Positions 9,014 through 49,648 of a DNA stretch of 64,000 nt are shown in pieces. The translations under genes and the position numbers were made by a program. How positions within the stretch are numbered: the stretch's first letter is position 1; the number at the start of each line of letters is the position of its first letter. Location: positions 46,335 to 110,334 of the forward strand of contig CALHSW010000034.1 of NCBI GenBank assembly GCA_938038735.1, in the 5' to 3' direction. Source of the stretch: an uncultured Bacteroidia bacterium (GTDB lineage: Bacteria; Bacteroidota; Bacteroidia; Bacteroidales; CAJPTX01). Below the pieces are notes generated by a model. That model worked only from the letters and a program-made list of their open reading frames with translations. It had not been told where the DNA came from and made no database searches.

Positions 9014-9056
9014 CGCAGTAAAAAAGAGAAGACAGAAAGCGAGGGGCTAGGGCGTG

Positions 9057-11615: not shown

Positions 11616-11714
11616 GGAGCAATCCCCGTGGCGGTAAGGTAGAATTAAGGTTGGCGAGGACGATACCGCTTTAAGGCGAATTCAACGTAAGGATTGATTG
11701 GGGGCTGCGCGGGT

Positions 11715-13563: not shown

Positions 13564-13571
13564 TACCTTTG
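13564..13571 (+). promoter_or_regulatory. -7 promoter box TACCTTTG
   Basis: It lies 29 nt upstream of the plsY ATG at 13600. Confidence 0.5.
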
Positions 13572-13599
13572 CAGAGGATAAAGCTAAAGGTTGCAGCAG

Positions 13600-14274: not shown

Positions 14275-14280
14275 CGGGCC

Positions 14281-15159: not shown

Positions 15160-15177
15160 AGGACTAGTGGAGAGACA

Positions 15178-15708: not shown

Positions 15709-15846
15709 TTTGCGCTTCTGCGGCAGCTTTCTGTAGGGGGGTGTAATGTTTCATTGTAACATCTCATCGTGCCATTTCGTAAACGTGCATGAGGGGGAGT
15801 GTGCGGAGGTTTCATCTATGAGGATAGACATTAATACGAGACAGCG

Positions 15847-18800: not shown

Positions 18801-21800
18801 GAAAGATTTTCCGGTGTCAATAAAAGTAGTGAGAGACGGAGAGAAGACGTATAGCGTGGTGAAGCCAGTGGATCTGCCTGCATTGGCTCCTGGCCAGTCC
18901 CACACGGTTAACACGGAGGTTCAAGTACCATGGGCTGCAAAGTGGGGAAAGAATAGCGAGGTGACAGTGACACTGCTTCCGCAGAGCGGGGAGAATGGAG
19001 AGGCGGACGAGGATGTTTCCAACAATGTTCTTGCGCAGACGATAGAGGCGAAGGTGCCTGCAGTGTTCCCATTGAAGGAAATTGTGAAGGAAGAAGGAGG
19101 TTACGTCCTCTATGCGTTGATGAACAATGGGTTGAAGCTACAGACGGAGCCTGAGCAGGGAAGCGGGTATGAGGGATATACCTTTAGCGATTTTTCCATT
19201 TCTGGGGGTGAGAGTTTTGCTACGATAAGCGGTGAGACTTTTACTGCCAAAGGTGAAGGTCTAATAAAGTTGAAATATAAAGTTAATGGAGAATGTGAAG
19301 AGAAGCTCCCGATTGAGATAAAGAGGGCGCAGTGCGATGTGGCCGTGGAGCATGTTGAGCCGGTGGGGGATGTGAACTGTAAGGATGAAGGGGAGGCATT
19401 GGCTTTTAAGGTGGCTATCAAGGATAACAAGCAGCCGAGTCAGGCGCAGGGCCTACGATTGGTGGTGACGCAAGGGGGGCGCGAGGTGTATAATGAGTCT
19501 GCCAAGCTGGGAGAACAAACGGTAGAAGTGATCAAGGCGCGCAGCGGAGGCGGCGTGCTGAAGTTTACGGCAGTGGCGGCTGCGGATATGGATGGATCGA
19601 ACAACACAAAAGTGTATGAGCCGGAGGTTCTTTTGTACCCCAAGCCATTGAAAGTATTCTTGCAGGATGTGAGCGACCCAACCTATATGCAGCGAGTTGA
19701 AAATGGGTCTGATCAGAACACGTATGGCAATCGGCAGTGGCAGCTTTACGTGCCAAAAGTGTCGGTGATTCCGAAGATAAACTGGACGCACCGAGGCTAT
19801 ACGATGAGTAGTCAGGAGGATGGGTACATAGTAAGGCTTGGGCAGGCGAGTGGGGAGTTTGTGGCTTTGGCGACGCTGAGCAATGGTACAGACCAGTGTC
19901 CGGAAAAGAAGGTGTTCTCCGTAAATGTTAAAAATGAGGACGTTGAGGTGCAGAGCTTGGGGGGAGGAACCGGTGCGCCGGGGCTCTGCGCGGATGCGCA
20001 AGGAGAGTATGAGGTATACGTGAGTCTGATGAACCATTCGTGGGTGAGCTATAGTCCAGAAACATGGTTGGGCTTTGAGCTGTCTGGGCCGAATGGCGAG
20101 TCTAAAAGAACCGTGCAGGTGCAGTTAACGGATGAATGGCAGCCGAAAGTACTTCTTTTATTACCGCTTGGGAAGCTTCCGAAAGAACTTAAGGATTTGG
20201 CCGTTGGTAATGCGGTGAGCTTGAAGGTGAAGTACCTAGGGGTGTATGATGCTGACAAGATAGAACTTACGCCTGATGCCAACGAGGCCAATAACGAAGT
20301 AGTGACGGAGCTAAAGCTGTCAAGTGCACCTAAGGTGGAATGGGAGGTGCCAGGTTTGAATCCGGAGGGGAACGAGTTCGTGGTGCGGAAGGTGTTTAAG
20401 GACGTGCCAACAGTGACTGGTACGTTGAAAGTGAAGGGTGGAGACCCGGTGGGTATGCACTACGCATGGTATAGCAAGTCGAAGCGGGCCGATGCGTGGA
20501 CCCTTCAGGAAGGGGGTGTTCAAGGTCCCGGCGTGTACAACATAATGGGAATAGCGGACGATTGCTACAAGGTGGAGGTGACGAATCAGGCGGGGTGTAG
20601 GTCGGAGCTGGAGATGCGGTATATACAAACGGATTTGGGCTTTACTAGCGGAAAGGTGATGGAAACGCCGACCGAGTCATGTGCATTGACGGACAACGAT
20701 GGTAACGTGCGTTTGATTTTTAAGAATACGGGTAGCAAGCCGTTAACGAGCGAGGAGAAATTTAGGGTTACGTTTCAAGTACAAGTCGATGGTGAGCTTC
20801 GGCCCTATACTAGCGATGTGATGTGGTTTTCGCCCGAGTTGGAGGTGAACGAAAGTCGGAGTGAGCTGGTAAAGGTAGAGAACTTGAGTACCCTTATAGC
20901 AGAGCTTCAGAAGAAAGCGGATGCGGATCCCAAGGGGAAGGAAAAGGCGAGATTGGCTTTCTATAATATAGAACTGAAAGCGGAAGGAGACTGGTCGGTA
21001 TCAGGCGCTGCCAACAAGGATAGGAGGAAGCGGGTTGCAGGGGTCACTCTTGAGGAATGGGGGGCGCCGCGCCCGACGGTTAAACTGTACTCGGGGGTGC
21101 CAGGGACGGAATTGTATCAAGGCAATGTGCGGAATCCGAAAGCTAAACAGGTAGGGCCGCAAGAAGGCTTTAGAAAAGGACAGGTGGATGGCATTGATAA
21201 CACCTACGGAGACCTTGTGGGAGTGGTTTCTAAAGCTCCTGGAGAGAAGGCGGAGTGGCTATGGCACTACACGTATACAAAGTTCAACAAGTGGCCAGAC
21301 GTGAAGTTGGCTTATGCAGTGGAAGATAGCGTGGTTAGTATTCCGCAGGCTAAGCAGACGGATTGGATGGAGCAGAATAAAAACCAAGTTGGAACGACCC
21401 CAGAGGGAGAGCCGAAGCGCCCCGATGGGACGTACACAGTGGTAGTAACAGGGGCGCATGAGTGCGTGTCGCGGGTTCAATTCACCGTGGCGGATAAGGC
21501 GTACGACTTGAAGCTTGAAGCGGTGCGGCCACCGCAAGACGAGTGCGATTTTAAGGGGAAGTCAACGAAGGTTACCGTTATCGTGCGCAATGTGGGAACT
21601 ATGTCCATAGACCCAAAGGCTGAGATAGTGCTTAAGCTGTCTCGTACAGATGATGTGCAGAGTCTTACCGAAAATTGGGCCAAAGCAGCCTATACAAATT
21701 TTTTGGGCACTGCGGAAGGAGCTACTACTAATATTAGTACGCATACAATAGAGAAATTAAATAATGGGAAGGCTTTGGAGCCGAATGGCGCGGTAGCCAT

Positions 21801-24800
21801 AGATGTGCCGGTGACGCTATACTACGAGGCCACTGATACAAAGGGGGTGGTTCGCTCGTTGCTTGATGGCGTGACGTTTGAGTATAGTGCTGAGGTGACG
21901 TTTGCTAATGGTGACTTCCACGAAGCGAATGTTGATAATAATAAGTCGGCAACAAAGGTAGCGGTGCGGGATATATCGTCTCCAAAGGTGACCGGATTTT
22001 TCTTGGAGTCCAACGGCAATTCTAAAACCTTCACAGGAGACCGCATCTTGTACCAATGGGATGAGACCCAAATGCATGGTGAGCCAGTAGCAGTGACTTT
22101 GGGGGCGTACGTATCGAACGAAGGTCTTGAGGATAGGAATTGGTATTTGCGAGGGGCGATGCATCAAAGCGGTGCGGCAAATATTACCAAGATTACAGGA
22201 TCAACTGCTACGGTGGATGGATATGGTAGCGCGGAGCTGGTGGTGAGTAACAATCGTTGTGAAGGGACAGGCGTTTTCACTATAGTAGGGACAGGGGCTG
22301 CATTGATAGTAGATAGCATCAAGGGGATCCCAGACGAGCTTTGCCCCGAACAGGTGGCTGGAAAACGGAAGCTGACGGTGAAGATTGTCAATCCGACCCC
22401 GACGCCTATCAACACAACAGCAGATGGGTGCGGCCAGAACCATAAGCAGGAAGCCACGGTAACGCTGAGCCTCGATGGGAATGCGCTCAAGACGACACCC
22501 CCGAAGCGGCTAAGTGCTGAGAAGTTCTTTGGGCCTAAGAAGGAATTGTACGGAGGCGAACAGGTTAATGGCGTTTGGAAGCGGGGGACTAAGGTAGTAG
22601 GTATTGGCGTTGGGATGAGTGCATTTGATATGATTTCCGTTACGTTTGATGATGTTGAACTAGATGGGACTCACCTACAGCCGGGTACGGAGGGTACGAT
22701 AACGGTGTCGCTTAGCGGCGGGTGTGTGGATGAAGGGGTCGTCGATTCGAAGGATAAGAAGGTCAAGGTGAACAAGAGTCCAGATTTGAGGGAGGTTCTA
22801 AAGCGTAGTCCGTTAGAGCAGTATGCCCTGCGAGGTTCGGCGGCAGCATGGAAGGAGGAGTGGAGTTCGCAGCAGAAGTTGCAAGAAGAGATGGAGTGGG
22901 GCAAGAAGGACGAGAGTTCCGCTATTGTTAGGGCTACCGTTGAGCAGTTGGGTACGGATAACAAGTATAATTTAAAGCTAAGCGCAGCGAAGCCCGGTAC
23001 GTATGTGCTGAAGGTAACGGATAAGGAGAAGGGATGCGCCAGTAGCAAGGAGGTAGAGGTACAGATGCCGGGGTTCTTGACGTTGGCGGAAGGAGATGCG
23101 ATAACGGTGGAGCCGAAAGATTTGCTAACGGGATCGTGCAAATACGATAAGGCGGCGCAAGCGCTGAAGGTAAAGGTAGTCAATAATGGGAATGAGCCTT
23201 TGGCGCTTGCAGGGAAGCGCACGTCGATAAGGCTTACATACTCCAAGAATGGGGAAAAAATAATTTCGTCTCCATCTTTGGACTACACGTTTGATGTAGG
23301 AGCTGCAGATTTAGGTGTGGGAGGCGAGATGGAGATAGATGTGAGCGTACCATTTAAGGGAGTAGATTTTAGCGGAGATGGTGTGTACGATTTGAACTTC
23401 GTTTTGCAGCAAGGTATAACCGATCCAGTGGATGGAGCACCAGATGAACTCCGTAGCGTTAATCCGAAGAATCTAACCGTCAAGCGGTACTACCAGCCGA
23501 CGGCAAAGCCAGATTTAGCGGCACAGGTGAAAGTTTGGGGAGGGCAAAGTGTTGATTTCAAAGCGTTGCCTAAAGATAAGAAGGTGCTGACGCTATATGG
23601 TTTGGCTAAGAATCCAAAGTTAGAGTATGGTCGTCCGACTAGCGAGGAGTATAATACTCTGCAAAAAAATGGTACGATGTGGACTTGGTATGTAGATGGA
23701 GAGCAAGTGCTGGGGCCAGCACCCATTGCGTATGAGAAGAAGTTTGTGATCCCGCAGCCAGATGGGATTGTGAAGGTAGTGATGCAGACCAAGGATGGAT
23801 GTTCGCTTGAAAGCGATGAGGTGGAGATGCGGCGGTTGAAAGAGTTTAAATTCGGTGAGGTCCGGCTGGGGAAGATGAGCAATAGTAAGTGTGCGGAGGA
23901 GAGTTCGGTTGATGGAACAGAGCAGGAGGTGACAGGTTCACTTAAGCTGGAGATGGCCGATGTTCCGCTGGCGGCGGGGACAAAAATTGAGTTGAGGTGC
24001 GCCTACACGCAGGGAAGTCCAGACGAGAAGAAAGAGGACGATGTATCGATAGTGTTGGATAAGGAATATAAAGCAGGGAATTCGATACCGTTCAAGATAA
24101 TGTTGCCATTTAAGGTTGGGACGAATAGCGTGGAGGTGCTTGGAGGTCAGTACGTTGAACCACATTCCCAAAGGCCTTCGCTGATAGGGAGGAGTACGAC
24201 ACGTGAGATTTTTGATGTTTTGGCATACCCGACGTTGCAAAGTGAGATTAAGAAGGAGCAGAAGGCGTACGCAAGTCCATATTCAATAGAATTTCCTGCT
24301 GTGGAACCCAGGAACGAAGTGGAGTACAGTTGGGAGAACAAACCGTATTCGAAGAGTCCTGATTTTCAAGTAACCGAAAGTGGAGGTTATCGCGTGTGGG
24401 TAAAACGGGCAAACGGCTGCATTTTGGAGGGCAATGTGCGGGTAGATTTCTACTTTAAGTATGATCTTTCTTTGGGCGCAGGCGGAAGCGTGAGGGTGAT
24501 AGATGCAGAGACCGGTGAGGAGTACAAGCAGGGAGAACAGGTAATAAAGGATGGGGCGAAGGTGAAGATAGAGCCAGTTGCGAATGCAGGTTATCATGTG
24601 CTGGGAGCAAAGGTGAACGGAGATGTATTTGATCTAGGATCAGTGTACCCCGTATTGAAAGACTTCAATGTAGAAGTTCTCTTTAGTAAGGATAACAATC
24701 CCACACCGCCAGGGCCTAATAATGCTGTAGAGAGCGAGTTGCTGAGCGAGTTGGTAGCAGTAAATCCGTTTACAGGCGTGCTGCGGCTGTATGGTGCGGA

Positions 24801-24984
24801 GAATGTGGAGAGCTACGTGGTGTACAATCAGCTGGGCAACGAGCTACTCCGGGGAGTGAATACTTCTGGCGGCCGTGTGCTAGATATAGATGCTGCGCAG
24901 CTGCACGAAGGGGTTTACGTGGTGAGGCTACGGGATTCGTTGGGCGGTGAGAGAGCTCTAAGAGTAGTGAAGGTGAGGCGCTAA
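15847..24984 (+). CDS. Giant (3045 aa) T9SS-secreted multi-domain surface protein
   Basis: The signal peptide is MSSVRRFIKLLLAVSLALTAVEAWAQ. At least 5 CARDB-like beta-sandwich modules end in xNN signatures (DMSNNVARV, DVSNNVLAQ, DGSNNTKVY, NEANNEVVT, NVDNNKSAT). An InlB-B-repeat-like module sits near the C-terminus. The type-A T9SS CTD is NPFTGVLRLYGAENVESYVVYNQLGNELLRGV...GVYVVRLRDSLGGERALRVVKVRR. Confidence 0.85.
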   Translation: MSSVRRFIKLLLAVSLALTAVEAWAQWTLPPDYSKDNDAQNPKDMRGGKGQGMRLLYYESFEGERIRTTEGWGTMPKSWGQEFIEGAGISHTTAYWVVEPGGGRPNDSASRTPWRPYDGEWNMLCYVNSTGAMQRLVTPELNLSGGDISDPRLVFYYASPKDYRGFCRMRVQYRFGEEEWKDLADVEEFQRADDWVPVSIPLPPALREKGGLQIGFVSVQNYGFGTAIDEVYVVNMDGAETGVKTFDLTPQSPIIARGAKNVPLMRMDVTLTSGGGKLKLQGFNGKEEPTSRSVEVHALDGNGQPLMQDALSNFRLFVGRGGKFSDAVEAAKLDFTGGAGKPYELKTFNIKDHKALIMQGGNTYNVWIVADVNDVVSTPYKTRIWVDVAEETTKFVWYKNDENPTSLNGTKQSFFPAKGHSYETPEVQKSVVYKSLFFDDFEAGLDKWNRLSGAAQQLWAVGSPKDASGGSFLSGGRPLEEQVKSAYSGDKVLATGELAQDGEKLRARYFANMVSANNQNECAWVEIKDQIDASQVKDVYLVMQKSFNTPSGMLLFVEGKYEGSTTTWVEFARYNVSSSDWQGWQELPLRLSRADGRKFNLRLRAFYPKGDVAHTGFVIDDLRILGNEVQNDVGITGLKVTESWDNGNGRKAVFTVRNYGVNVQKDIKYDVYVDGNLVLGGQSLPEGDLAAGGSRNVKTDELAALKADLNRDNTHEIEVRLKLSTDEDMSNNVARVTTYSYPTIPVSDAKPYPENFGDPMHHWFGGEAYREGFKSSWLFNSVYSISKCRDNSGKQAGPFGEGMLLGSYIWTTGDHTAFGFEQSVLTSPVFEISTQDAKNRKEFVMAYTTQGENVEVQVEYRKENGDWQRLEKSAQWEKEWYDGSGAVWKGSTTEGYKIVKTLLPDDLQGVGGAVKAQFRVYFYNRSADRVPGIAVNGIEVRSVRSDIYVKSIEPRGGCENPLGNDETLRVTIAVNAEPAIAYGARKDFPVSIKVVRDGEKTYSVVKPVDLPALAPGQSHTVNTEVQVPWAAKWGKNSEVTVTLLPQSGENGEADEDVSNNVLAQTIEAKVPAVFPLKEIVKEEGGYVLYALMNNGLKLQTEPEQGSGYEGYTFSDFSISGGESFATISGETFTAKGEGLIKLKYKVNGECEEKLPIEIKRAQCDVAVEHVEPVGDVNCKDEGEALAFKVAIKDNKQPSQAQGLRLVVTQGGREVYNESAKLGEQTVEVIKARSGGGVLKFTAVAAADMDGSNNTKVYEPEVLLYPKPLKVFLQDVSDPTYMQRVENGSDQNTYGNRQWQLYVPKVSVIPKINWTHRGYTMSSQEDGYIVRLGQASGEFVALATLSNGTDQCPEKKVFSVNVKNEDVEVQSLGGGTGAPGLCADAQGEYEVYVSLMNHSWVSYSPETWLGFELSGPNGESKRTVQVQLTDEWQPKVLLLLPLGKLPKELKDLAVGNAVSLKVKYLGVYDADKIELTPDANEANNEVVTELKLSSAPKVEWEVPGLNPEGNEFVVRKVFKDVPTVTGTLKVKGGDPVGMHYAWYSKSKRADAWTLQEGGVQGPGVYNIMGIADDCYKVEVTNQAGCRSELEMRYIQTDLGFTSGKVMETPTESCALTDNDGNVRLIFKNTGSKPLTSEEKFRVTFQVQVDGELRPYTSDVMWFSPELEVNESRSELVKVENLSTLIAELQKKADADPKGKEKARLAFYNIELKAEGDWSVSGAANKDRRKRVAGVTLEEWGAPRPTVKLYSGVPGTELYQGNVRNPKAKQVGPQEGFRKGQVDGIDNTYGDLVGVVSKAPGEKAEWLWHYTYTKFNKWPDVKLAYAVEDSVVSIPQAKQTDWMEQNKNQVGTTPEGEPKRPDGTYTVVVTGAHECVSRVQFTVADKAYDLKLEAVRPPQDECDFKGKSTKVTVIVRNVGTMSIDPKAEIVLKLSRTDDVQSLTENWAKAAYTNFLGTAEGATTNISTHTIEKLNNGKALEPNGAVAIDVPVTLYYEATDTKGVVRSLLDGVTFEYSAEVTFANGDFHEANVDNNKSATKVAVRDISSPKVTGFFLESNGNSKTFTGDRILYQWDETQMHGEPVAVTLGAYVSNEGLEDRNWYLRGAMHQSGAANITKITGSTATVDGYGSAELVVSNNRCEGTGVFTIVGTGAALIVDSIKGIPDELCPEQVAGKRKLTVKIVNPTPTPINTTADGCGQNHKQEATVTLSLDGNALKTTPPKRLSAEKFFGPKKELYGGEQVNGVWKRGTKVVGIGVGMSAFDMISVTFDDVELDGTHLQPGTEGTITVSLSGGCVDEGVVDSKDKKVKVNKSPDLREVLKRSPLEQYALRGSAAAWKEEWSSQQKLQEEMEWGKKDESSAIVRATVEQLGTDNKYNLKLSAAKPGTYVLKVTDKEKGCASSKEVEVQMPGFLTLAEGDAITVEPKDLLTGSCKYDKAAQALKVKVVNNGNEPLALAGKRTSIRLTYSKNGEKIISSPSLDYTFDVGAADLGVGGEMEIDVSVPFKGVDFSGDGVYDLNFVLQQGITDPVDGAPDELRSVNPKNLTVKRYYQPTAKPDLAAQVKVWGGQSVDFKALPKDKKVLTLYGLAKNPKLEYGRPTSEEYNTLQKNGTMWTWYVDGEQVLGPAPIAYEKKFVIPQPDGIVKVVMQTKDGCSLESDEVEMRRLKEFKFGEVRLGKMSNSKCAEESSVDGTEQEVTGSLKLEMADVPLAAGTKIELRCAYTQGSPDEKKEDDVSIVLDKEYKAGNSIPFKIMLPFKVGTNSVEVLGGQYVEPHSQRPSLIGRSTTREIFDVLAYPTLQSEIKKEQKAYASPYSIEFPAVEPRNEVEYSWENKPYSKSPDFQVTESGGYRVWVKRANGCILEGNVRVDFYFKYDLSLGAGGSVRVIDAETGEEYKQGEQVIKDGAKVKIEPVANAGYHVLGAKVNGDVFDLGSVYPVLKDFNVEVLFSKDNNPTPPGPNNAVESELLSELVAVNPFTGVLRLYGAENVESYVVYNQLGNELLRGVNTSGGRVLDIDAAQLHEGVYVVRLRDSLGGERALRVVKVRR

Positions 24985-37886: not shown

Positions 37887-38252
37887 CTAGTTGTTACTCG
37901 ACGGCGGGTTCGGAGCGTCGCGATTGTAGTGCGGCATGGAGTCGGGGATGACCATGGAAAGTTCCACAAGTCCCATGACCTCGCCGTTGACGCGCCAAGG
38001 GGTTTGGTAGATGAGTTTCCTCTGCCCCTTTTTCGTTATGGTGTAGACGTTTTTTGCCCCTTTGAAAAGCTGTTCAATAATCGCCTTCGACCGCTCATTG
38101 TGGCATTCACGCACCTGTTTCCCCATCAAGGATTGCGGATGCCCCTTGGCGTTGATTTCCCCTGACTTATCATTGACGAAAATAAAGTTGCCATCTCTGT
38201 CCGTAATGGTGATGGCAACATCGAGTCCGTTGAGAATGGTTTCTAAATCCAT
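37887..38252 (-). CDS. Stand-alone PAS-domain protein
   Basis: ORF 37887..38378 was trimmed to the ATG at 38252 (MDLETILNGLDVAITITDRDGNFIFVNDKS...), which is 26 nt downstream of a minus-strand TACCTTTG box. It has a PAS-like fold pattern and no output domain. Confidence 0.6.
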   Translation of the reverse strand: MDLETILNGLDVAITITDRDGNFIFVNDKSGEINAKGHPQSLMGKQVRECHNERSKAIIEQLFKGAKNVYTITKKGQRKLIYQTPWRVNGEVMGLVELSMVIPDSMPHYNRDAPNPPSSNN

Positions 38253-38277
38253 GCTGTTGCAAGCGTTAACGTTTCTG

Positions 38278-38285
38278 CAAAGGTA
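38278..38285 (-). promoter_or_regulatory. -7 promoter box TACCTTTG (minus strand)
   Basis: The plus strand reads caaaggta, 26 nt upstream of the PAS gene start. Confidence 0.5.
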
Positions 38286-38458
38286 CAAAAGAACGTAGAG
38301 ACGCGCCATTTGCGACAAAGTGTCATGCCTTTGTGGTGGTTTGACAAGAAGGCATACGGTTTGGAGTGAAGCATGCAAACGGTTTATCTAGACTGTTTCG
38401 GCGGAAGAAGAGGTAGGATAAAAGTTGTAACTTAGCGGCGAAAAAAAAGGAAGAAGAT

Positions 38459-42381: not shown

Positions 42382-42408
42382 TCGGCTGGTGAGGCTGAGA
42401 GAACTACG

Positions 42409-42447
42409 CTGCGGCGGCTTCCTGCGGGAAGCTGCCGTAGTTTTTTT
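42409..42447 (+). terminator. Rho-independent terminator after fabG
   Basis: ctgcggcggcttcc-tgcg-ggaagctgccgtag forms a 14-bp stem including 2 G-U pairs, followed by ttttttt. Confidence 0.85.
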
Positions 42448-42665
42448 AGGCCGTTGCGGCATTCGTGGAGCGCATTGGCATCCGTTACGGGGAGATGCTT
42501 GATAGCTACTTCTTTTCACAACATTCTCTATTTGTGCGTTTTTAAGGCTCCGGGTGGCATAAAATAGATGATATTTGGTAAATTCGCGGCGTGGTGGATG
42601 GGGGGGTGGGGCAAGATTTATGGGGGTGCGGGATAGATGGAGAATGCATAAAGAGGCAAAACGAC

Positions 42666-43604
42666 ATGCTGGGCTGGTTTAATAAAAAACGGAAGGACAC
42701 GCTCGACCAGGGGTTGAGCAAAACGCGTACGAGCCTATTTTCAAAAATTTCAAAGCTCTTCGGGCTGCGCAAGAGTGTGGATGAGGAGTTCTTGGACAAC
42801 CTTGAGGAGGTTCTTGTGGGGGCAGATGTAGGGGTTGAAACCACGATACGTATCATCGATGGCGTTGAGGCCAAGGTGAAGGGCGGCGCGCCGGCCTCAA
42901 CCGAAGAGGACCTACACAAAGTGCTGCACGAAGTGGTGAAGGATTTGCTTTCTGTGAGCCCCGCTAAGCCTATAGGAGAGCCGATACCAGGAACCCCGTA
43001 CGTGGTGCTGGTGGTGGGGGTGAATGGCGTGGGGAAAACCACCACGATAGGGAAGCTCGCCTACCTCTACAAAGAAATGGGCAAAACGGTGATGCTGGGC
43101 GCGGCAGATACGTTCAGGGCGGCGGCCATAGATCAGTTGACCGTGTGGTCAGAGCGGGTGGGCGTGCCCATTGTGAAGCAGAAGATGGGGGCAGACCCCG
43201 CCTCCGTGGCCTACGACACGGTGGCCGCTGCCATGGCGCAAGGGACTGACGTGGTGCTAATAGACACCGCGGGGCGGCTGCACAACAAAGTGAACCTCAT
43301 GAACGAGCTGGGGAAAATCCGCCGGGTGATGCAGAAACTGCTGCCCGATGCCCCCCAGGAGGTGCTCCTCGTGCTGGATGGAAGCACCGGCCAGAATGCG
43401 TACGAGCAGGCGAAGCAGTTCGTGAGCGTCACCGAGGTGAACGCCTTGGCGTTAACCAAGCTAGACGGCACCGCCAAGGGCGGCGTGGCTATCGGAATTA
43501 CAGACCAGCTGCAGATACCCATAAAGTACATCGGCGTGGGGGAGCAAAAGGAGGATTTGCAGTTCTTTGATAAGGACGCATTCGTAGACTCACTTTTCTT
43601 GTAG
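42666..43604 (+). CDS. ftsY: Signal recognition particle receptor FtsY
   Basis: ORF 42591 was trimmed to the ATG at 42666 (MLGWFNKKRKDTLDQGLSKTRTSLFSKI). The SRP-GTPase motifs VVGVNGVGKTTTIGKLA, LIDTAGRLHNK and TKLDGTAKGG are present. Confidence 0.94.
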   Translation: MLGWFNKKRKDTLDQGLSKTRTSLFSKISKLFGLRKSVDEEFLDNLEEVLVGADVGVETTIRIIDGVEAKVKGGAPASTEEDLHKVLHEVVKDLLSVSPAKPIGEPIPGTPYVVLVVGVNGVGKTTTIGKLAYLYKEMGKTVMLGAADTFRAAAIDQLTVWSERVGVPIVKQKMGADPASVAYDTVAAAMAQGTDVVLIDTAGRLHNKVNLMNELGKIRRVMQKLLPDAPQEVLLVLDGSTGQNAYEQAKQFVSVTEVNALALTKLDGTAKGGVAIGITDQLQIPIKYIGVGEQKEDLQFFDKDAFVDSLFL

Positions 43605-43612: not shown

Positions 43613-44935
43613 ATGGAGAAGAGCGATGGGCGGTCGGCTGTATTGGTAACGTTGGGGTGTTCCAAAAACACGGTTGACAGTGAGCGACTGGGTGGGGCAT
43701 TGGCTGCAGCGGGATGGCGAGTGCGCTACGATGAGGAGCCAACGGCGAAGGATGTGCTTATTCTTAATACGTGTGGCTTTATAGGGGATGCCAAGGAGGA
43801 GTCGGTGGGCTACATCCTCCGGGCGGAGGCGATGCTGCGGCAAAAAGCCGTGCGCGATGTGGTGGTGATGGGCTGCCTCTCGGAGCGCTACAAAGGGGAG
43901 TTGCGGCGAGAGGTGCCGGGCATTGCGCATTGGTATGGGGTGCGCGATGCCGATGAGTTGCTCGCAATGTTAGGCGTGCCGCGTCCATTAGAGACTGCCC
44001 AGCGTAGGTTGCCCTCCACCCCACAGCATTATGCGTATTTGAAGATTGCGGAGGGGTGCAATCGGGGGTGCAGCTTCTGCGCCATACCGAGCATCCGGGG
44101 ACGTTACCAATCGTTGAGCCAGGCGCAGCTGGTGCGGGAGGCGGAGCAGCTCGCAGCGGGCGGCGTGAAGGAACTCATGCTGATAGCGCAGGAGCTGACT
44201 AGCTACGGCCAGGATCTGCATGATTCGGAGGGTTTAGCGGGACTTCTTTGGAAGCTGAGCGAGGTGAAGGGCATTGAGTGGCTACGCCTGCACTACGCTT
44301 ACCCCACGGGATTCCAGGAGGGAGTGCTAGAATGGATGCGGAGCTGCGAGAAGGCGTGTCGTTACTTGGATATCCCGGTGCAGCATGTATCCGATGCGGT
44401 GCTGCGGAGTATGAATCGGCATCACGATGCGGCGGCCACAAGGGCGTTGATGCGGCGGTTGCGAGAGGAGGTGCCTGGCGTAACTCTGCGCACCAGTCTC
44501 ATTGTGGGGTTTCCTACGGAGGGTGAGAAGGAGTTTGAGGAGCTGTTGTCATTTGTAAGGGAGTCGGAGTTTGACCATCTAGGCGTTTTTGCCTACTCCG
44601 AGGAGGAGGGTACGGCCGCGGCTGCAAGGTTTGAGGACGTTATTCCTGCCGAAGAGAAGCAGCGTCGCCTGGAGGCGGTAATGGAGACGCAACGCCCCAT
44701 TGCGGCGCGCCGTAAGGCACGGCACGTAGGGCAAACGCTGCGTGTTATTGTGGATGAGTTGCATGGAGAGGGCGAGGCGCAGGGGCGCACGGAGTTTGAT
44801 AGTCCAGAGGTAGATGGTGAGGTGCTGGTGCGCGGGGTGAATGGAGCTGCGCGGCCGGGTGATTTTATAGAGGTGCAGATTACGGGAGTGGATGATTACG
44901 ATTTGTTGGGGCGAATGGTGGTTAAAGGAGCGTGA
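43613..44935 (+). CDS. rimO: Ribosomal protein S12 methylthiotransferase RimO
   Basis: 440 aa. It has the UPF0004 N-domain LGCSKNTVDSE, the radical-SAM motif IAEGCNRGCSFCAIP and a C-terminal TRAM domain. Confidence 0.92.
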   Translation: MEKSDGRSAVLVTLGCSKNTVDSERLGGALAAAGWRVRYDEEPTAKDVLILNTCGFIGDAKEESVGYILRAEAMLRQKAVRDVVVMGCLSERYKGELRREVPGIAHWYGVRDADELLAMLGVPRPLETAQRRLPSTPQHYAYLKIAEGCNRGCSFCAIPSIRGRYQSLSQAQLVREAEQLAAGGVKELMLIAQELTSYGQDLHDSEGLAGLLWKLSEVKGIEWLRLHYAYPTGFQEGVLEWMRSCEKACRYLDIPVQHVSDAVLRSMNRHHDAAATRALMRRLREEVPGVTLRTSLIVGFPTEGEKEFEELLSFVRESEFDHLGVFAYSEEEGTAAAARFEDVIPAEEKQRRLEAVMETQRPIAARRKARHVGQTLRVIVDELHGEGEAQGRTEFDSPEVDGEVLVRGVNGAARPGDFIEVQITGVDDYDLLGRMVVKGA

Positions 44936-44979: not shown

Positions 44980-47151
44980 GTGTCGTTAGGAGATGTAAAG
45001 AGACGGGGTGTAGGGGTGCTGTGCGTGTTGCTGGTGTGCCTGGCAGGGGGCATCGGCTGTTCGCACCCTCGGGGTGAGGCCGTAGTTGTGGGGCAGGACA
45101 GCGTGAAGGGAGGCGATCCTGAATGCGTAGCAGTGGATTCTGCGGCGCTGCGAGAGGGCGGTGTGCCGGCTGCGAACGCTCAAGATGTCGTTGCAAGGAT
45201 TGATACATTGTGGAATCGTGCGGATCGTGCGCTTGATTCTCTGCGTTTCCGCGAGGCTATGCAAGAGTTGGATGAGCTGGGGGAGTTGCTGCTTGCGAAG
45301 GGAGACTCAGCCGATTTAGTAAAATATTTTGCTTGGCGCGGTGATACCTACTATTCACTCGGCGAAACCACGAATGCGTTGCGTGCATTTCGAACGGCTT
45401 TAACCTTTCGGACGAATAATCCGCAGTGGGAGCTGTTCTCGGCGTACGTTAATTCGGGGGTCATATACGGCGAGTTTCGTTACGATACCGAGGCGTTGAA
45501 GAATTTCCAAAAGGCGGATAGTGTGCTGCGGGTGCGTGGAAATAGCAACGGACGCAGCTACTTGCTTTGCAACATGTCGGATATTTATCTGCGCGATGGG
45601 CATTACGAGGAGGCCCTGTACGCCTGCTACGATGCGCAGCTAAGTTTACGGAAACGATATGTAGACCTCGTGGCGTTGATCCATGTGCAGATGGCGCGTG
45701 TCTACGCAAAGATGGGGCGGACAGACTTGGTGAAAGCGCACTCGGATTTTGTTTTAAACTATGTAGCGACGCGGGGAAACGATCGGCTTTGGCAAGAGGT
45801 TTACGTTAAGATGGCTAGCGCATGGCAGGATTGTGGCGACGACGAACAGACTGAGTTCTTATTGATGGCGGAGCGGGCGTTGCGTATCTCCAATCCGAGC
45901 GAGCTGGTGTACCGATTGCTGCTCAAAACCACGGCAAAGCAGTTGGAAAGGGCTGGCGATTATGCCGGGGCCGAGCGGGCTGTTGATGGGTATTTACGGT
46001 ATGATGATAGCACCCGGCGATTGCTAGCCCAGGTGGATTTCGCCGAGGTGGCCACTGCCGATGCGATATTCTTAATGCATGCAGAGCAGCAGCGGCAGCT
46101 AGAGCGGCTGGAGCAGGAGCGGTTGGCTCGGCGCGGTGTGTATCGGTGGGTAGCATTGTTTATGGCAGGGCTTTTCACGCTGCTTGTGGCTATTGGCCTA
46201 ACCATGCAGGCGGTGCGCGAACAGCGTATTCAAGCTGTGACCAGCATACGGGCGGTGGCCGATAGGCTAACCGTGGTGAACGCCAGCGTGGAGCATAGGC
46301 AGATGCAATTGGTGCAGCAGCAGGAAGAGATAGGGCAGCAGAGGGTCATGTTGGAACAAACGCAACGCATGCTGCGCCACGTCGGGAAGGAGCTACGGGG
46401 CGACCTGCGCTACGTATCGAACCTACAGCAAACGCTTCTCCCATCGGAGGAAAAGCTGCGTAGCATTCTGGGGGAGACCTTTGTGCTCTACCTGCCCCGC
46501 GATGTGGTCTCAGGAGATTTTTACAGCTGCGCTGAGGTGGGTGACGCTAAGGTGTTGGCAGTATTCGACTGCGCGGGGCATGGCATTGCGGGGGCATTGA
46601 TGAGTATTATTGGAAACATCTTGATGCGAACCGTTCTGCAGGAGGAGTCCAATCCCGACCCCGCGGTAATCCTGACGAAGCTACATCGGTTGGTGCAGCA
46701 GTATCTGCACGATGACCGCGATAGCCTTGTGAGCTTCTACACAATGGATGTCAGCGTAGCGGTTTGGCATGCCCAGGAGCGGCGCCTAGTGCTGAGCAGT
46801 GCCTGTCGCACTGCGTATCTTTACACAGAAGGGCAGTTGCATGCCTATCGCGGGGTCTTGATGAGCGTTGGCAGTACGTTGGTGCATCGGACGTACGTGA
46901 ACGATGAAATCGTTCTATCTGCCCCCGCCACGCTATACTTGTGTAGCGATGGGTATGCGGATCAGCTGGATAAAAACAATCGTAAGTACGGCAGAGTCCA
47001 TTTTGAAAAGTTGCTCTCTAGCGGTGCGGGGCATTCCATGCAGCAGCAGCTATCGGTTCTGCGCCGCGAGTTTGATAGCTATAGGGTAGGAGCTCTCCAA
47101 ACGGACGATGTGTGCGTGTTGGGCGTGAGATTGGAGGAGGGATGGGCATGA
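44980..47151 (+). CDS. Lipobox-TPR-TM-coiled coil-SpoIIE/PP2C phosphatase, paralogue 1
   Basis: 723 aa with a GTG start and lipobox LAGGIGCS. It has TPR-like helical repeats, the TM segment VYRWVALFMAGLFTLLVAIGLTM and a Q/E-rich coiled coil. The PP2C motifs are VSGDFYSCAEVGDAKVLAVFDCAGHGIAGALMS, LCSDGYADQL and TDDVCVLGVRL. Confidence 0.85.
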   Translation: MSLGDVKRRGVGVLCVLLVCLAGGIGCSHPRGEAVVVGQDSVKGGDPECVAVDSAALREGGVPAANAQDVVARIDTLWNRADRALDSLRFREAMQELDELGELLLAKGDSADLVKYFAWRGDTYYSLGETTNALRAFRTALTFRTNNPQWELFSAYVNSGVIYGEFRYDTEALKNFQKADSVLRVRGNSNGRSYLLCNMSDIYLRDGHYEEALYACYDAQLSLRKRYVDLVALIHVQMARVYAKMGRTDLVKAHSDFVLNYVATRGNDRLWQEVYVKMASAWQDCGDDEQTEFLLMAERALRISNPSELVYRLLLKTTAKQLERAGDYAGAERAVDGYLRYDDSTRRLLAQVDFAEVATADAIFLMHAEQQRQLERLEQERLARRGVYRWVALFMAGLFTLLVAIGLTMQAVREQRIQAVTSIRAVADRLTVVNASVEHRQMQLVQQQEEIGQQRVMLEQTQRMLRHVGKELRGDLRYVSNLQQTLLPSEEKLRSILGETFVLYLPRDVVSGDFYSCAEVGDAKVLAVFDCAGHGIAGALMSIIGNILMRTVLQEESNPDPAVILTKLHRLVQQYLHDDRDSLVSFYTMDVSVAVWHAQERRLVLSSACRTAYLYTEGQLHAYRGVLMSVGSTLVHRTYVNDEIVLSAPATLYLCSDGYADQLDKNNRKYGRVHFEKLLSSGAGHSMQQQLSVLRREFDSYRVGALQTDDVCVLGVRLEEGWA

Positions 47152-49319
47152 GGTGGAAACAAGCTGTGTGGGCTTTGATTCCCTTAATGGTTTCGTGCAA
47201 CCTGCGGGTGCAACCGGCAAAGGTTGATCCAAATGACGGAGAGCATCTTGTAGGAGCCTGCACTGCGTGGCTCTCGCATTTCGATTCGCTTGTCTATGGG
47301 CTTCATTTTGATGAAGCGCAGCGTTTGGTGGATAGCATGGGGCGGATTGCAGAGGTTGATAGCAGTTGGCAAGCTGCGTTTTATAGCCGTTGGATGTCTT
47401 CCGCCCTCACCTACGTGGAGGATCGGGATGGCAGGGCGCTGGATACGCTTGAGTATCTGTATGTGTCGCAAGGCAGTAACTTGTGCTCACGGGCGTACTC
47501 CAGGCTAGGGTTAGTGCTCGCCGCCATCTATACCTGGAATGAAAATCCTGCGCTGGCATTGATGTACACCCGTGCGGTGCTGCTGGAGTCGAAGGAGATG
47601 GGTGATGAGGGGATGGTGCAAGCGGCGCTGCTGCAAATGTTGACAAATAGCTGGCAGCTAGGCGATACGCATGTGGTTGACTCGATTCAGGCGGAGCTGG
47701 GGCGGCTGTCGCTTAGCGCGGAGGGGCGGCCCCATATTTTACCCCATGTATTGCGGCTGGTAGATAGCGGGCAGTGGGAGAAGGCAGCCGTGGCGCTCGA
47801 CTCGTTGCGGGGCGAATACCTCCGATCGGATAACCTGCTATGGGCAGGATACGTGGCGCAAGGCGTGGCAGCGGCGAGGCTCAAGCAGGGAGATACGGAG
47901 CAGGCGTTATCCCTATTGCGGTGGGTAGATTCGTTGCCATCCCAACGAGTCCCAGCGCAAAAAGTTTTTGCATCGTGGACTCTCTATGGGCGCTGCTACG
48001 CCGCGAGGGGGGAGTTTCAAAAGGCTATCGTATCCTACCAACAGGCGCTGGACGATGCCGAGTCGTTGCACGCTTCGCTATATAGGGCGAAGGTGCTGCG
48101 TCTGCTCGGCGAAGTCTATAGGGAGAGTGGGAACTACCGGCGGGCTGTTCGCATGAAGAGCCTCGCCGTTTCGCTGCAAGATTCAGTAGCGAGCGCACTC
48201 TCTGTGAAGCTCTTCAGGAGCGTGGATAATATGCGGGGGCTACAGGAAACGCTGTCGGCCTACGAGCGGCAGCTCGCGCAGGAGCAGAAGCAGGAAGCCA
48301 AGCGCAATAGGTGGAGCGTGTCGGCACTCGTGGCCTTGGCGTTGGCCATTACGCTGGTAGAGATATTGCTCTATCGGCTCTGGATTGTGCTGATAAAGAA
48401 GCGGAAACAGGGGGAGGAATTGCAGTCGCTTACCGTGGCGCTGCGCCAGCGTAGCGAGGCCCTCGACGAGCAGGGAAAACGATTGGAACGGTTGCATGCG
48501 GAGGCTCTTAAGCAGACCAATCAGTTGCTTAGGGTTCACTCAGCCATGCGTGGCAAGACAGCCAAAACGATGCAGAGCGTCACATATGCAAGCTCCATAC
48601 AGCAGTCGCTGCTGCCAACGGCGCAGGAGCGGCAGGCCCTTTTTGCTGATAGCTTCCTGATTGCTAGGGCAAAGAATGTGGTATCGGGCGATTTGCTTTG
48701 GTTGGGCAGGTGCGGCGACCAGGTGGTAGCCGTTGCGGTGGATTGCACGGGATATGGGGTGTCGGGGGCATCTCTTTCGTTTATTGCCTACATGCTGTTG
48801 AATTCGGTGGTACTTGAGCGGGGCATAAGCGATCCGCCCGTTGTGTTGAAGGAGGTTGATGTGGAGCTTCGGGAGTTGCTGCAAGGCACGGATAAACGCT
48901 TTCAAGGAGAGGTGGCCATTGATTTAAGCGTGCTTACCATACACCCCGCCACGCGCACAGCAAGCTTTAGCGGAGAGGGGCGACAGCTTTTCTATAGCCC
49001 CGATGGCCGCACGGTGCACTGCCTACATGGCAATGCGTGTGCCTTGGACGATAGTAGCTTGCATGGACCACCCCTGACCATGGCAACCATCTCCTACGCC
49101 CCGGGTGCGCTCTTCTACTTGCTGACCGATGGGCTGGTGCAGCAGCTCAATTCAGACCATGAGAAGCTGGGCATGCAGCGCATTAGCCGCACGTTGGAAA
49201 AGATTCTCCAGCTCCCCATGCGGGAGCAGGAGCGGGAGTTGCTGGGACTATTCGCCCGGCATAGGCTTGCAGAGGAGCAAACCGATGACATCACGGTGCT
49301 AGGGATGCGCATGGCGTAA
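47148..49319 (+). CDS. Lipobox-TPR-TM-coiled coil-SpoIIE/PP2C phosphatase, paralogue 2
   Basis: The ATG at 47148 overlaps the upstream TGA (ATGA), and 47142 is also possible. The N-terminus is MRWKQAVWALIPLMVSCNL. The architecture matches paralogue 1. The PP2C motifs are VSGDLLWLGRCGDQVVAVAVDCTGYGVSGASLS, LLTDGLVQQL and TDDITVLGMRM. Confidence 0.83.
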   Translation: MRWKQAVWALIPLMVSCNLRVQPAKVDPNDGEHLVGACTAWLSHFDSLVYGLHFDEAQRLVDSMGRIAEVDSSWQAAFYSRWMSSALTYVEDRDGRALDTLEYLYVSQGSNLCSRAYSRLGLVLAAIYTWNENPALALMYTRAVLLESKEMGDEGMVQAALLQMLTNSWQLGDTHVVDSIQAELGRLSLSAEGRPHILPHVLRLVDSGQWEKAAVALDSLRGEYLRSDNLLWAGYVAQGVAAARLKQGDTEQALSLLRWVDSLPSQRVPAQKVFASWTLYGRCYAARGEFQKAIVSYQQALDDAESLHASLYRAKVLRLLGEVYRESGNYRRAVRMKSLAVSLQDSVASALSVKLFRSVDNMRGLQETLSAYERQLAQEQKQEAKRNRWSVSALVALALAITLVEILLYRLWIVLIKKRKQGEELQSLTVALRQRSEALDEQGKRLERLHAEALKQTNQLLRVHSAMRGKTAKTMQSVTYASSIQQSLLPTAQERQALFADSFLIARAKNVVSGDLLWLGRCGDQVVAVAVDCTGYGVSGASLSFIAYMLLNSVVLERGISDPPVVLKEVDVELRELLQGTDKRFQGEVAIDLSVLTIHPATRTASFSGEGRQLFYSPDGRTVHCLHGNACALDDSSLHGPPLTMATISYAPGALFYLLTDGLVQQLNSDHEKLGMQRISRTLEKILQLPMREQERELLGLFARHRLAEEQTDDITVLGMRMA

Positions 49320-49426: not shown

Positions 49427-49493
49427 CTACCAACACCGTACCCCCTTCGCATCAAATTCGGATTTCTCCGGAGAAATCCGAATTTGATGCGAA
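49427..49493. repeat. Palindromic intergenic element, copy 2 (perfect 48-bp palindrome at 49446-49493)
   Basis: 49441-49493 is identical to 311-363. It lies in the convergent gap between the PP2C paralogue 2 gene and proS. Confidence 0.9.
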
Positions 49494-49614: not shown

Positions 49615-49648
49615 TACAAAACGGCCGCCGCTCCAAACGGAGCGGCGG
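49615..49648 (-). terminator. Rho-independent terminator of proS (minus strand)
   Basis: ccgccgctcc-aaac-ggagcggcgg forms a 10-bp GC stem 23 nt after the proS stop. It is followed on the minus strand by gttttg. Confidence 0.7.

Follow-up and report, generated by a model that had tools for sequence, protein, structure and literature searches.

What this locus asks is why two adjacent, putatively translationally coupled genes should code for two membrane-bound phosphatases of the same design, and on which protein these phosphatases act. The window analyzed here is the complete stretch of 64,000 nucleotides; the products of gene 1 and gene 2 are named P1 and P2, and the coordinates of all features are listed in Table 1.

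Table 1. Features of the gene pair and its surroundings. Residue numbers refer to P1 or P2; AF2, AlphaFold2.
Feature	Position	Strand	Remarks
ftsY	42591..43604	+	Pfam SRP54 and SRP54_N matches; first gene past strong terminator
rimO (ribosomal protein S12 methylthiotransferase)	43613..44935	+	NCBIfam TIGR01125, 463 bits (cutoff 357)
Gene 1 (P1)	44980..47151	+	GTG start, 723 aa; canonical TPR-TM-linker-PP2C sensor phosphatase, SiaA-like subfamily
P1 N-terminal hydrophobic signal or anchor segment	44998..45072	+	residues 7-31, Cys27; hydropathy 2.26
P1 TPR-like helical-repeat sensor	45178..46005	+	residues 67-342; Pfam TPR_8 and TPR_12; AF2 paired helices, pLDDT mostly >90
P1 transmembrane helix	46135..46218	+	residues 386-413; hydropathy 2.34; within one continuous AF2 helix 345-416
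P1 cytoplasmic Q/E/R-rich linker helix	46237..46395	+	residues 420-472; AF2 helix, low monomer confidence
P1 PPM/PP2C domain	46405..47139	+	residues 476-720; PF07228, 65 bits; aligned to 6K4E
ATGA start/stop overlap, gene 1/gene 2	47148..47151	+	4 nt; same overlap in 8/11 lineages
Gene 2 (P2)	47148..49319	+	723 aa from ATG at 47148; P1 paralogue, same architecture, remodelled active site
P2 TPR-like sensor	47238..48125	+	residues 31-326; Pfam TPR_12, 38 bits; AF2 helices
P2 transmembrane helix	48309..48398	+	residues 388-417; hydropathy 2.41; continuous AF2 helix 330-417
P2 PP2C-fold domain	48621..49310	+	residues 492-721; PF07228, 60.6 bits; Foldseek 6K4E TM 0.89
P2 Tyr536 codon	48753..48755	+	Tyr in place of His
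P2 Gln665 codon	49140..49142	+	position of SiaA D604 (third-metal support)
Perfect 48-bp palindrome	49446..49493	.	127 nt past gene 2 stop; identical to its own reverse complement

Two paralogous sensor phosphatases of the SiaA subfamily

Both P1 and P2 begin with a signal-like segment and a TPR solenoid, which a single transmembrane helix and a long helical linker connect to a PPM/SpoIIE domain at the C-terminus. Pfam, hydropathy, and AlphaFold2 agree on this shared architecture, as the original prediction had it. Hydropathy yields one N-terminal hydrophobic segment and one internal transmembrane segment per protein. The matches to TPR_8 in P1 (30.3 bits, threshold 25.7), to TPR_12 in P2 (38.4 bits, threshold 30.1), and to SpoIIE (PF07228; 65.2 bits for P1 and 60.6 bits for P2, cutoff 25) all pass the Pfam thresholds. 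The AlphaFold2 models (mean pLDDT 83 for P1 and 77 for P2) contain in both cases helical repeats and a very long helix that runs through the transmembrane segment, followed by another helix in the linker and a domain with the PP2C fold. The TPR-like sensor domain of P1 is presumably periplasmic. The P1 linker aligns with that of SiaA (NCBIfam SiaA model, positions 389 onward), and its helix 420-472 is a candidate coiled coil.

The best PDB match of both phosphatase domains is SiaA (6K4E), with E-values of 1e-29 and 3e-25 and a Foldseek TM of 0.88-0.89. SiaA is also the closest NCBIfam model for P1 and P2, which score 149 and 142 bits compared to an equivalog cutoff of 700. We assign both domains to the SiaA subfamily.

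The claimed paralogy is borne out by 26% identity across the C-terminal 405 residues (E 4e-31). According to a profile comparison with hhalign, homology begins only at about residue 321-324, and the two sensors are without detectable similarity except for the last repeat. Each N-terminus had been assigned a signal sequence with a lipobox Cys; the analysis supports that both N-termini are exported, but not the lipobox, which is not conserved among orthologues and leaves lipidation unsupported. The Cys of P1 is conserved among orthologues in an atypical context, the residue at -1 being D or V in some, and the Cys of P2 is missing from three of the four orthologous lineages, in which the signals are of the AxA type.

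The reading frame of gene 2 is open from 47112 and contains ATG codons at 47142 and 47148. The start was placed at the ATG within ATGA, as chosen by gene callers in relatives, and the overlap of start and stop noted earlier is real. Gene 1 follows rimO at a distance of 44 nt, and the synteny with rimO is kept in relatives. A strong terminator-like hairpin is located at 42408-42441 and no comparable hairpin follows up to 49319; the transcription unit that holds the gene pair possibly begins at ftsY. Its 3' boundary is likely the 48-bp palindrome.

The active site of P2 is remodelled

In P1, the motifs SGDF (511-514), DCAGHG (530-535), SDGYADQ (656-662), and QTDD (707-710) were found, and the corresponding motifs of P2 are SGDL (513-516), DCTGYG (532-537), TDGLVQQ (660-666), and QTDD (711-714). 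The key residues of P1 are D513, D530, C531, G533, H534, D590, D657, G658, D661, D709, and D710, and were mapped onto D457, D474, C475, G477, D534, D600, G601, D604, and D653 of SiaA. In SiaA, the metal ligands are D457, D474, D600, and D653, a further metal contact is made by the carbonyl of C475, and M3 is stabilised by D604 and D534 (PMC7647112). The signature DDGHGDDGDDD of P1 is fully intact. P2 keeps D515, D532, D592, D661, D713, and D714, which include the Asp ligands of the binuclear metal centre; the statement that four core Asp positions persist in both proteins was correct.

The differences between GDF and GHG in P1 and GDL and GYG in P2 are likewise located where they had been described. 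Compared to 110 other Bacteroidota homologues from GTDB genomes, the Tyr of P2 replaces a His that is invariant (His534 in P1 numbering, 110/110), and the Gln replaces an Asp that is found in 107 of 110 (D661); D657 is conserved in 109 of 110. Every P2 orthologue has a Tyr at 534 and a Gln or Glu at 661. Lineage-specific additional losses are D657R, D590E, and G533S; the metal-ligand Asp is an Arg in the P2 lineage of loci L001-L004 and an Asn in another member of the clade. When 1.84 billion representatives were searched exhaustively with HMMER, the closest relatives of P2 all proved to have two to four substitutions at H534, G535, D590, D657, or D661, with D513, D530, D709, and D710 being invariant. 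GYG is more than the mere departure from the usual motif as which it had been noted: it marks a conserved clade of its own, in which the active site is degenerate.

Since the P2 of the window keeps the four Asp residues of the binuclear site and D592, it may still hydrolyse its substrate. The third metal has been described as supportive and not indispensable (PMC12088040), and the literature is split on whether it is essential (PMC12088040; PMC13142519).

The pair recurs and both genes are under purifying selection

In all 11 lineages of uncultured Bacteroidia examined (four close lineages and seven P2 relatives looked up from the HMMER search), the degenerate gene directly follows an intact partner. 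The first gene carries the complete DDGHGDDGDDD signature in 11/11, and a degenerate type that lacks an intact partner directly upstream was never seen among these lineages, across which P2 identity falls to about 22-31%. In the FastTree phylogeny, the upstream genes form a clade with an SH-like support of 1.0 and the downstream, degenerate genes one with 0.994; both clades group together, apart from about 79 other homologues, with a support of 0.968. The phylogeny, which had been suggested as a means of dating the duplication, supports a single ancient duplication as the origin of the pair.

Purifying selection acts on both genes. Compared to a 94%-identical relative, dN/dS is 0.166 for P1 and 0.156 for P2; the values for the PP2C domains alone are 0.090 and 0.087, and because they are about 0.09, both domains are constrained. 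The mean column identity of the P2 clade is 71% among close lineages.

The tandem arrangement itself, though correctly recognized, is not special, because sensor phosphatases of this kind often occur in Bacteroidota as arrays of two to four. Some consist of fully intact TPR-TM-PP2C paralogues, for example the four in locus L026. Tight overlaps occur also within such all-intact arrays, and coupling alone is therefore no proof of a complex.

Most relatives' loci lack adjacent partner genes

Among the window ORFs scanned, including all small non-overlapped ones, there was no member of the STAS, RsbW-like, SiaB, SiaC, or sigma-factor families, and a six-frame scan of the window with SiaB and SiaC HMMs gave no match. 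Pair-bearing loci contain no SiaB, SiaC, or STAS genes within flanks of about 2-10 kb per side, and STAS, RsbW, and sigma genes are absent from the window and from every pair-bearing locus. Substrate assignment consequently relies on more distant relatives. In 8-10 of 80 Bacteroidota loci, SiaA-like PP2C genes adjoin genes for a SiaB-family kinase and SiaC; instead of RsbW, RsbV, or sigma factors, the neighbours encode kinases of the SiaB family (NF038262/DUF6272) and phosphoproteins of the SiaC family (PF09345). No diguanylate cyclase was found beside the SiaB/SiaC genes in the Bacteroidota relatives checked. About 70 of the 80 loci are devoid of any adjacent partner. The original prediction was thus right about the absence of partner genes from the window, but not in treating it as a puzzle: as the domain is SiaA-like and most relatives have no adjacent partner, missing STAS, RsbW, and sigma genes are to be expected.

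A proposed pair of catalytic and regulatory subunits

With moderate confidence, we propose a conserved two-gene module in which intact P1 and remodelled P2 form a membrane heterodimer of a catalytic and a regulatory subunit, in line with the heterodimeric sensor suggested in the original prediction. Gene 2 would be translationally coupled, and P1 and P2 would be made in equal amounts. The subunits would contact each other via the transmembrane helix, the coiled-coil linker, and the α0-α2 interface of the PP2C domain, as in the homodimers of SiaA and RsbU; the SiaA-PP2C domain is a homodimer (PMC7647112), and coiled-coil-linked PPM dimers have been put forward as a general activation mechanism (PMC12143880). 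P1 would be the catalytic subunit, and P2 a weakly active or inactive regulatory one that brings in a second input from the periplasm. The pair would act on a switch protein of the SiaC/STAS type that carries a phospho-Thr or phospho-Ser, placed there by a SiaB-type kinase whose gene lies elsewhere in the genome.

P1 and P2 could also form homodimers instead. It is conceivable, albeit rather unlikely, that they are two independent active sensor phosphatases, each a homodimer of its own, which respond to different periplasmic ligands and act on the same downstream switch protein, the substitutions of P2 tuning rate or metal preference while leaving catalysis in place. The sensors are indeed unrelated beyond the last repeat, D515, D532, D661, D713, and D714 are kept in the P2 of the window, the third metal is described as supportive (PMC12088040), and intact tandem paralogues exist in other Bacteroidota. 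Two active enzymes are, however, difficult to reconcile with the strict occurrence of the degenerate type behind an intact partner, with the Arg or Asn in place of a metal ligand, and with the replacement of up to four active-site positions in some clade members; such a pattern is typically seen where the constraint on catalysis is relaxed but the fold is retained (dN/dS 0.087). That gene 2 is a decaying duplicate without a function of its own would agree with its substitutions at conserved catalytic positions, but the conservation and the dN/dS values all but rule it out: all 11 lineages have kept the frame intact despite divergence to about 22-31% identity, and the gene as well as its PP2C domain is constrained.

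Regarding the target, classical partner switching of the RsbU/SpoIIE type, with a STAS anti-anti-sigma protein (RsbV/SpoIIAA type) as substrate and a sigma factor controlled via an RsbW-type kinase encoded elsewhere, appears improbable. The fold does resemble SpoIIE, Rv1364c, and RsbX, in locus L051 a STAS/SiaC-borderline protein adjoins the PP2C gene, and SiaC is structurally related to STAS (PMC8457831). Yet SiaA, not RsbU, is both the nearest relative of solved structure and the nearest NCBIfam model, the partners beside relatives are of the SiaB and SiaC families, and the classical partners are missing from the window and all pair-bearing loci.

Comparison with known systems

SiaA from Pseudomonas aeruginosa (6K4E; PMC7647112) is the closest known protein by structure and NCBIfam model, and the match spans linker and PP2C domain. 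It shares with P1 the metal-ligand Asp residues and the DC(A/T)GHG and DG..D motifs. SiaA, too, is a sensor phosphatase of the membrane, and it forms dimers via the PP2C domain (PMC7647112), as is proposed here for P1 and P2; SiaB/SiaC homologues adjoin the same domain type in several Bacteroidota. In contrast, its sensor is a periplasmic/HAMP module and not a TPR solenoid, no siaB, siaC, or siaD is located near the P1 and P2 genes, and the gene of P1 is paired with that of a degenerate paralogue.

PPM dimers of the RsbU/RsbP/RssB type likewise combine an N-terminal sensor, a long helical linker, and a PPM domain; α0-α2 dimerisation has been proposed as a general on-switch, and RssB is a precedent for the PPM fold as a non-catalytic regulator (PMC12143880). 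These proteins are soluble homodimers, whereas P1 and P2 are membrane-anchored, have exported sensors, and stem from two distinct genes. On the sensor side, the FimS model of Porphyromonas gingivalis (NF053520) gives a weak but specific match to the P1 TPR region (residues 88-285, E 1e-4), with a score far below the family cutoff. FimS-type periplasmic TPR sensor kinases of Bacteroidales have the same order of exported TPR, transmembrane helix, and cytoplasmic output; their output is a histidine kinase instead of a PP2C domain.

A comparable pair is RsbU (CT588) of Chlamydia trachomatis and its neighbour CT589 (PMC4552016). These are also paralogous membrane-spanning proteins with periplasmic and cytoplasmic PP2C-like domains; the metal-binding residues are conserved in only one of the two, and the genes for their partners in partner switching lie elsewhere in the genome (PMC4552016). 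Their sensors are not of the TPR type. According to PMC4552016, the metal-coordinating residues themselves are absent from CT589, whereas P2 keeps the binuclear Asp residues and loses the His and third-metal support. The phyla are unrelated, and the two pairs must therefore have originated independently. A 4-nt overlap and recurrence across lineages are described for neither CT588 nor CT589, and both are present in the P1/P2 pair. This recurrence suggests an undescribed receptor pair of an enzyme and a pseudo-enzyme.

Gene pair and domain architecture

Both open reading frames of the original prediction were present in the DNA of the window, as was the ATGA in which the stop codon of gene 1 (encoding P1) overlaps with the ATG at 47148 of gene 2 (encoding P2). 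In the relatives, the gene calls start gene 2 at the ATG of the ATGA, which likewise yields 723 residues. The neighbours of the pair are housekeeping genes, the order being clpB, tpx, fabG, a terminator, ftsY, rimO, the pair, a palindrome, and proS on the opposite strand. The ProRS shares at most 72% identity with that of any GTDB species representative. A radical-SAM methylthiotransferase precedes the pair in most lineages; its subfamily varies, being RimO in the clade of the window and MiaB, followed by an amidohydrolase, in two others. Coordinates of these and all further features are compiled in the table.

Features of the window and of related loci (names beginning with L), each locus with its own coordinates
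Locus	Feature	Position	Strand	Remarks
Window	Gene 1 (P1)	44980-47151	+	GTG start, 723 aa
Window	Gene 2 (P2)	open from 47112, end 49319	+	in-frame ATGs 47142 and 47148; 723 aa from ATG 47148
Window	Perfect 48-bp palindrome	49446-49493		127 nt past gene 2 stop; distinct from proS terminator
Window	proS terminator	49625-49648		
Window	RimO methylthiotransferase	43613-44935		upstream of pair
Window	PAS-domain protein	37887-38378	-	upstream of clpB
Window	HAMP and MCPsignal protein	12134-13249	-	371 aa
Window	Large ORF	15847-24984	+	3045 aa
L001	P2 orthologue	12142-14319		TRG vs TDG
L173	MiaB methylthiotransferase	1311-2645		then amidohydrolase
L176	MiaB methylthiotransferase	825-2186		then amidohydrolase
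L175	dCache-HAMP-MCPsignal gene	330-2210	-	divergent, immediately upstream of PP2C pair
L034	Double-DUF6272 kinase	11181-12251		
L024	Double-DUF6272 kinase	15794-16945		
L069	Double-DUF6272 kinase	11183-12265		
L026	TPR-TM-PP2C array	9605-17901		four consecutive genes
L089	TPR-TM-PP2C array	5266-11545		
L052	TPR-TM-PP2C array	9524-13722		

Two further genes of the window are recorded here. One encodes a methyl-accepting chemotaxis-type protein, which is unusual among Bacteroidia; in the distant lineage L175, a gene of the dCache-HAMP-MCPsignal type adjoins the PP2C pair. The sole Pfam signal of the 3045-residue ORF is a weak C-terminal Por_Secre_tail (24 bits), the sorting domain of type IX secretion.

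The assignment of both C-terminal domains to SpoIIE (PF07228) was confirmed, as their scores of 65.2 bits (P1) and 60.6 bits (P2) exceed the Pfam gathering cutoff of 25. TPR matches over cutoff were TPR_8 in P1 and TPR_12 in P2, and hydropathy analysis gave for each protein an N-terminal hydrophobic segment and a single internal TM segment. AlphaFold2 models, which were built on an alignment of 66 sequences (mean pLDDT 83 for P1 and 77 for P2), consist of a paired-helix solenoid with 14-16 helices at regular spacing (residues 67-342 in P1, 31-326 in P2), one very long helix that includes the TM segment, another long helix as linker, with low confidence in the monomer, and a confident PP2C fold. 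Both proteins share the layout of signal-like segment, TPR, TM, linker and phosphatase. P1 and P2 are 26% identical across the C-terminal 405 residues. In a profile-profile comparison, homology began at about residue 324 and extended to the C-terminus, none being detectable before; the sensor domains have therefore diverged past recognition.

The lipobox cysteine originally assigned to each protein did not withstand a comparison of orthologues. In the P1 orthologues the Cys is kept but is preceded by an Asp or a Val (GVDC or GVVC); it is absent from three of the four P2 orthologous lineages, which possess AxA-type signals in its place. The conserved [LVI][ASTVI][GAS]C lipobox of bacterial lipoproteins was thus found in neither group, and the reading as lipoproteins was rejected. 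That the N-terminal domains of P1 and P2 are exported can soundly be inferred, lipidation being unsupported.

Relation to SiaA and state of the active sites

The best solved relative of both proteins is the PP2C domain of SiaA from Pseudomonas aeruginosa (6K4E; E-values 1e-29 for P1 and 3e-25 for P2). This structure was also the top Foldseek match of both models, with target-normalised TM-scores of 0.88 and 0.89, followed by SpoIIE, Rv1364c, RsbX and RssB; both domains thus have the alpha-beta-beta-alpha fold of PP2C enzymes. The sole strong NCBIfam match was the SiaA model NF038263, which scored 148.6 bits for P1 and 142.2 bits for P2, compared to an equivalog cutoff of 700, and was restricted to model positions of approximately 360-658, i. 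e. linker and PP2C domain. Because the match is partial and below the cutoff, P1 and P2 are regarded as SiaA-like and not as SiaA orthologues.

In SiaA, the residues D457, D474, D600 and D653 bind the metals M1 and M2, and the carbonyl of C475 touches M2; D600 also binds M3, which D604 and D534 stabilise via water molecules (PMC7647112). The equivalents of D457, D474, D600 and D653 are present in both P1 (D513, D530, D657, D710) and P2 (D515, D532, D661, D714). Active-site positions, given below in P1 numbering, were compared across 119 aligned PP2C domains, 110 of which lie outside the P1 and P2 clades and served as reference set. In the latter, His534 of the DCxGHG motif is invariant (110/110), and D657, D661 and D590 occur in 109, 107 and 108 domains, respectively. 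None of these positions is altered in P1 or its orthologues. All P2 orthologues contain a Tyr at position 534 and a Gln or Glu at position 661; in P2 of the window, Y536 replaces the family-invariant His and Q665 the equivalent of SiaA D604. Additional losses are lineage-specific, namely D657R (loci L001-L004), D590E (L005, L009) and G533S (L009). The P2 orthologue of L001-L004, which contains an Arg at the position of the metal ligand D600, provides the clearest individual example of a site that is probably inactive.

The same pattern was found in the nine proteins closest to P2 in an exhaustive HMMER search (P0025, P0027, P0029, P0030, P0032, P0035, P0041, P0045, P0062). In each of them, between two and four of the positions H534, G535, D590, D657 and D661 are substituted; D513, D530, D709 and D710 are invariant. 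All members of the P2 clade have lost the His and the support of the third metal; a ligand of the binuclear centre has been lost in two lineages only (D657R, D657N). The original observation that P2 has GYG where P1 has GHG is correct; it is not a mere variant, being the mark of a conserved clade of degenerate paralogues. As judged from the alignment, P1 is shown to possess all residues for SiaA-type catalysis; P2 is shown to keep the fold and the binuclear ligands, without the family-invariant His and the support of the third metal. The importance of this metal is rated differently: according to the title of PDB entry 2Y09 it is needed for efficient catalysis in tPphA, it is described as essential for PPM1B in PMC13142519, and a survey from 2025 considers it supportive and not indispensable (PMC12088040).

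Recurrence and origin of the pair

The family of sensor phosphatases is large. A scan of GTDB genomes with P1 motifs detected at least 591 loci in Bacteroidota, whose PP2C parts are about 30% identical, and a full HMMER search with P2 retrieved, at E<=1e-3, 25,219 representatives; many members are about 700 residues long and show the TPR-TM-PP2C layout. A search of GTDB genomes with the protein P0001 as lone query found no relative, and the alignment of the nine P2-clade sequences contained no stretch conserved enough to serve as query. In Bacteroidota, two to four such genes frequently stand in tandem, and the tandem arrangement per se is therefore not special. Contiguous arrays of this size with 1-nt overlaps were observed in three unrelated Bacteroidota MAGs (L026, L089, L052). 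Unlike the intact/degenerate pair, all their active sites are intact; their members apparently match in length and order.

The genomic context was determined for seven of the P2-like proteins. Each is encoded by the downstream member of a tandem pair, the upstream gene of which displays the signature of intact active-site residues DDGHGDDGDDD. Together with four close lineages, the degenerate P2-type clade is always paired with an intact upstream enzyme in the 11 distinct lineages looked at, down to a P2 identity of approximately 22-31%. A start/stop overlap of 4 nt is found in eight of these lineages; of the remainder, two have gaps (2 nt and 8 nt) between the genes and one has an overlap of 28 nt as called.

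The question of when the genes were duplicated, raised by the original prediction, was addressed with a FastTree phylogeny of 104 domains. All upstream genes form one clade (SH-like support 1.0), all downstream, degenerate proteins a second one without any intact member (0.994), and the two group together (0.968), with about 79 other homologues outside. These supports indicate one ancient duplication, after which both members of the pair diversified in concert. For the window compared with a relative of 94% identity, dN/dS values are 0.166 for P1 and 0.156 for P2, and 0.090 and 0.087 for the respective PP2C domains; both genes are therefore under purifying selection.

Partner genes

In agreement with the original prediction, no gene for a STAS protein, an anti-sigma kinase or a sigma factor was found in the window: a scan of its ORFs, including all small non-overlapped ones, gave no member of the STAS, RsbW-like, SiaB, SiaC, GGDEF or sigma-factor families. 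As a STAS/SiaC candidate, the short conserved gene that lies upstream of clpB was considered and rejected, since it encodes a PAS-domain protein (PAS_4, 28.8 bits). This gene is flanked by clpB and an ABC ATPase gene in all close relatives.

The neighbours of related PP2C genes were clustered for 80 Bacteroidota loci. Just two small partners recurred, proteins of about 190 and about 125 residues, found at eight loci each, which are a SiaB-family kinase (NF038262, DUF6272) and a SiaC-family phosphoprotein (PF09345), respectively; at one more locus, a divergent DUF6272-like protein lies beside a STAS/SiaC-like protein. At three loci (L034, L024, L069), a SiaB-family kinase of about 360-383 residues contains two DUF6272 domains, a tandem duplication within one polypeptide, and adjoins SiaC and a SiaA-like PP2C gene. 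A scan of the genes flanking the SiaB/SiaC pairs in the relatives for a common output domain, e. g. GGDEF, gave none. With respect to the siaB/siaC/siaD operon, SiaB and SiaC HMMs derived from the partners just described gave no match to the window, to L001-L009 or to any further locus bearing the pair. An adjacent partner is likewise missing from about 70 of the 80 loci, so that an "orphan" sensor phosphatase is the norm for this family. The missing STAS and sigma genes, originally regarded as puzzling, thus lose their peculiarity, and the family assignments make it likely that the partners are of the SiaB/SiaC rather than the RsbW/RsbV/sigma type.

Proposed mechanism and comparison with known systems

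SiaA-PP2C is a homodimer (PMC7647112), and PPM phosphatases with diverse sensors are turned on when a coiled-coil linker joins two phosphatase domains via alpha0-alpha2 (PMC12143880). For the pair studied here, overlapping translation would provide equal amounts of P1 and P2, which may then associate as a membrane-spanning heterodimer. P1 would contribute the active site; allosteric control and a second periplasmic input would come from P2. The putative output is the dephosphorylation of a switch protein of the SiaC/STAS type, whose gene would be located elsewhere in the genome. As a main rival, P1 and P2 might constitute two independent active homodimers; in favour of this, P2 retains its binuclear ligands, and against it, the degenerate P2 is found beside an intact partner throughout.

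The linkers were compared as well. In five lineages, both partners have precisely 135 residues between a juxtamembrane DS motif and the Tyr of PP2C alpha0; in other family members, the distance from TM to alpha0 ranges from 45 to 136 residues. Since the DS motif also occurs at other spacings elsewhere in the family, the 135-residue spacing weakly suggests a matched helical register of the partners. Taken together, we consider it possible, though somewhat short of probable, that P1 and P2 are an obligate heterodimeric transmembrane receptor phosphatase, in which a pseudo-phosphatase subunit, equipped with a periplasmic TPR sensor of its own, allosterically controls the one catalytic subunit. 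Such a two-input receptor of enzyme and pseudo-enzyme, conserved in a deep clade of Bacteroidia, would be undescribed for bacterial PPM phosphatases. The observation underlying the original prediction stands; its interpretation, which had included a heterodimeric sensor, is supported in part and is sharpened by the recognition of the GYG clade and of the likely partner type.

Bacteroidota encode sensor PP2C phosphatases in great abundance, almost none of which has been studied in this phylum. Full-text literature searches brought up no article dealing with TPR-SpoIIE proteins, or with pairs of this kind, in Bacteroidetes. The combination of an intact enzyme and a remodelled paralogue offers a testable model for the integration of two periplasmic inputs into one Ser/Thr phosphatase output, and also for the origin of pseudo-enzymes from homodimeric signalling enzymes. 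The search for substrates is redirected to the SiaB and SiaC families and away from anti-sigma modules.

SiaA is the nearest characterised protein, but sensor, operon and pairing of P1 and P2 differ from those of SiaA. A precedent for a PPM fold acting as a non-catalytic regulator is RssB from E. coli. With respect to pairing, the nearest analogue is RsbU (CT588) from Chlamydia trachomatis with its neighbouring paralogue CT589, which spans the membrane, lacks the metal-coordinating residues and has an unexplained role (PMC4552016). The pair described here is a parallel to the one in Chlamydia.
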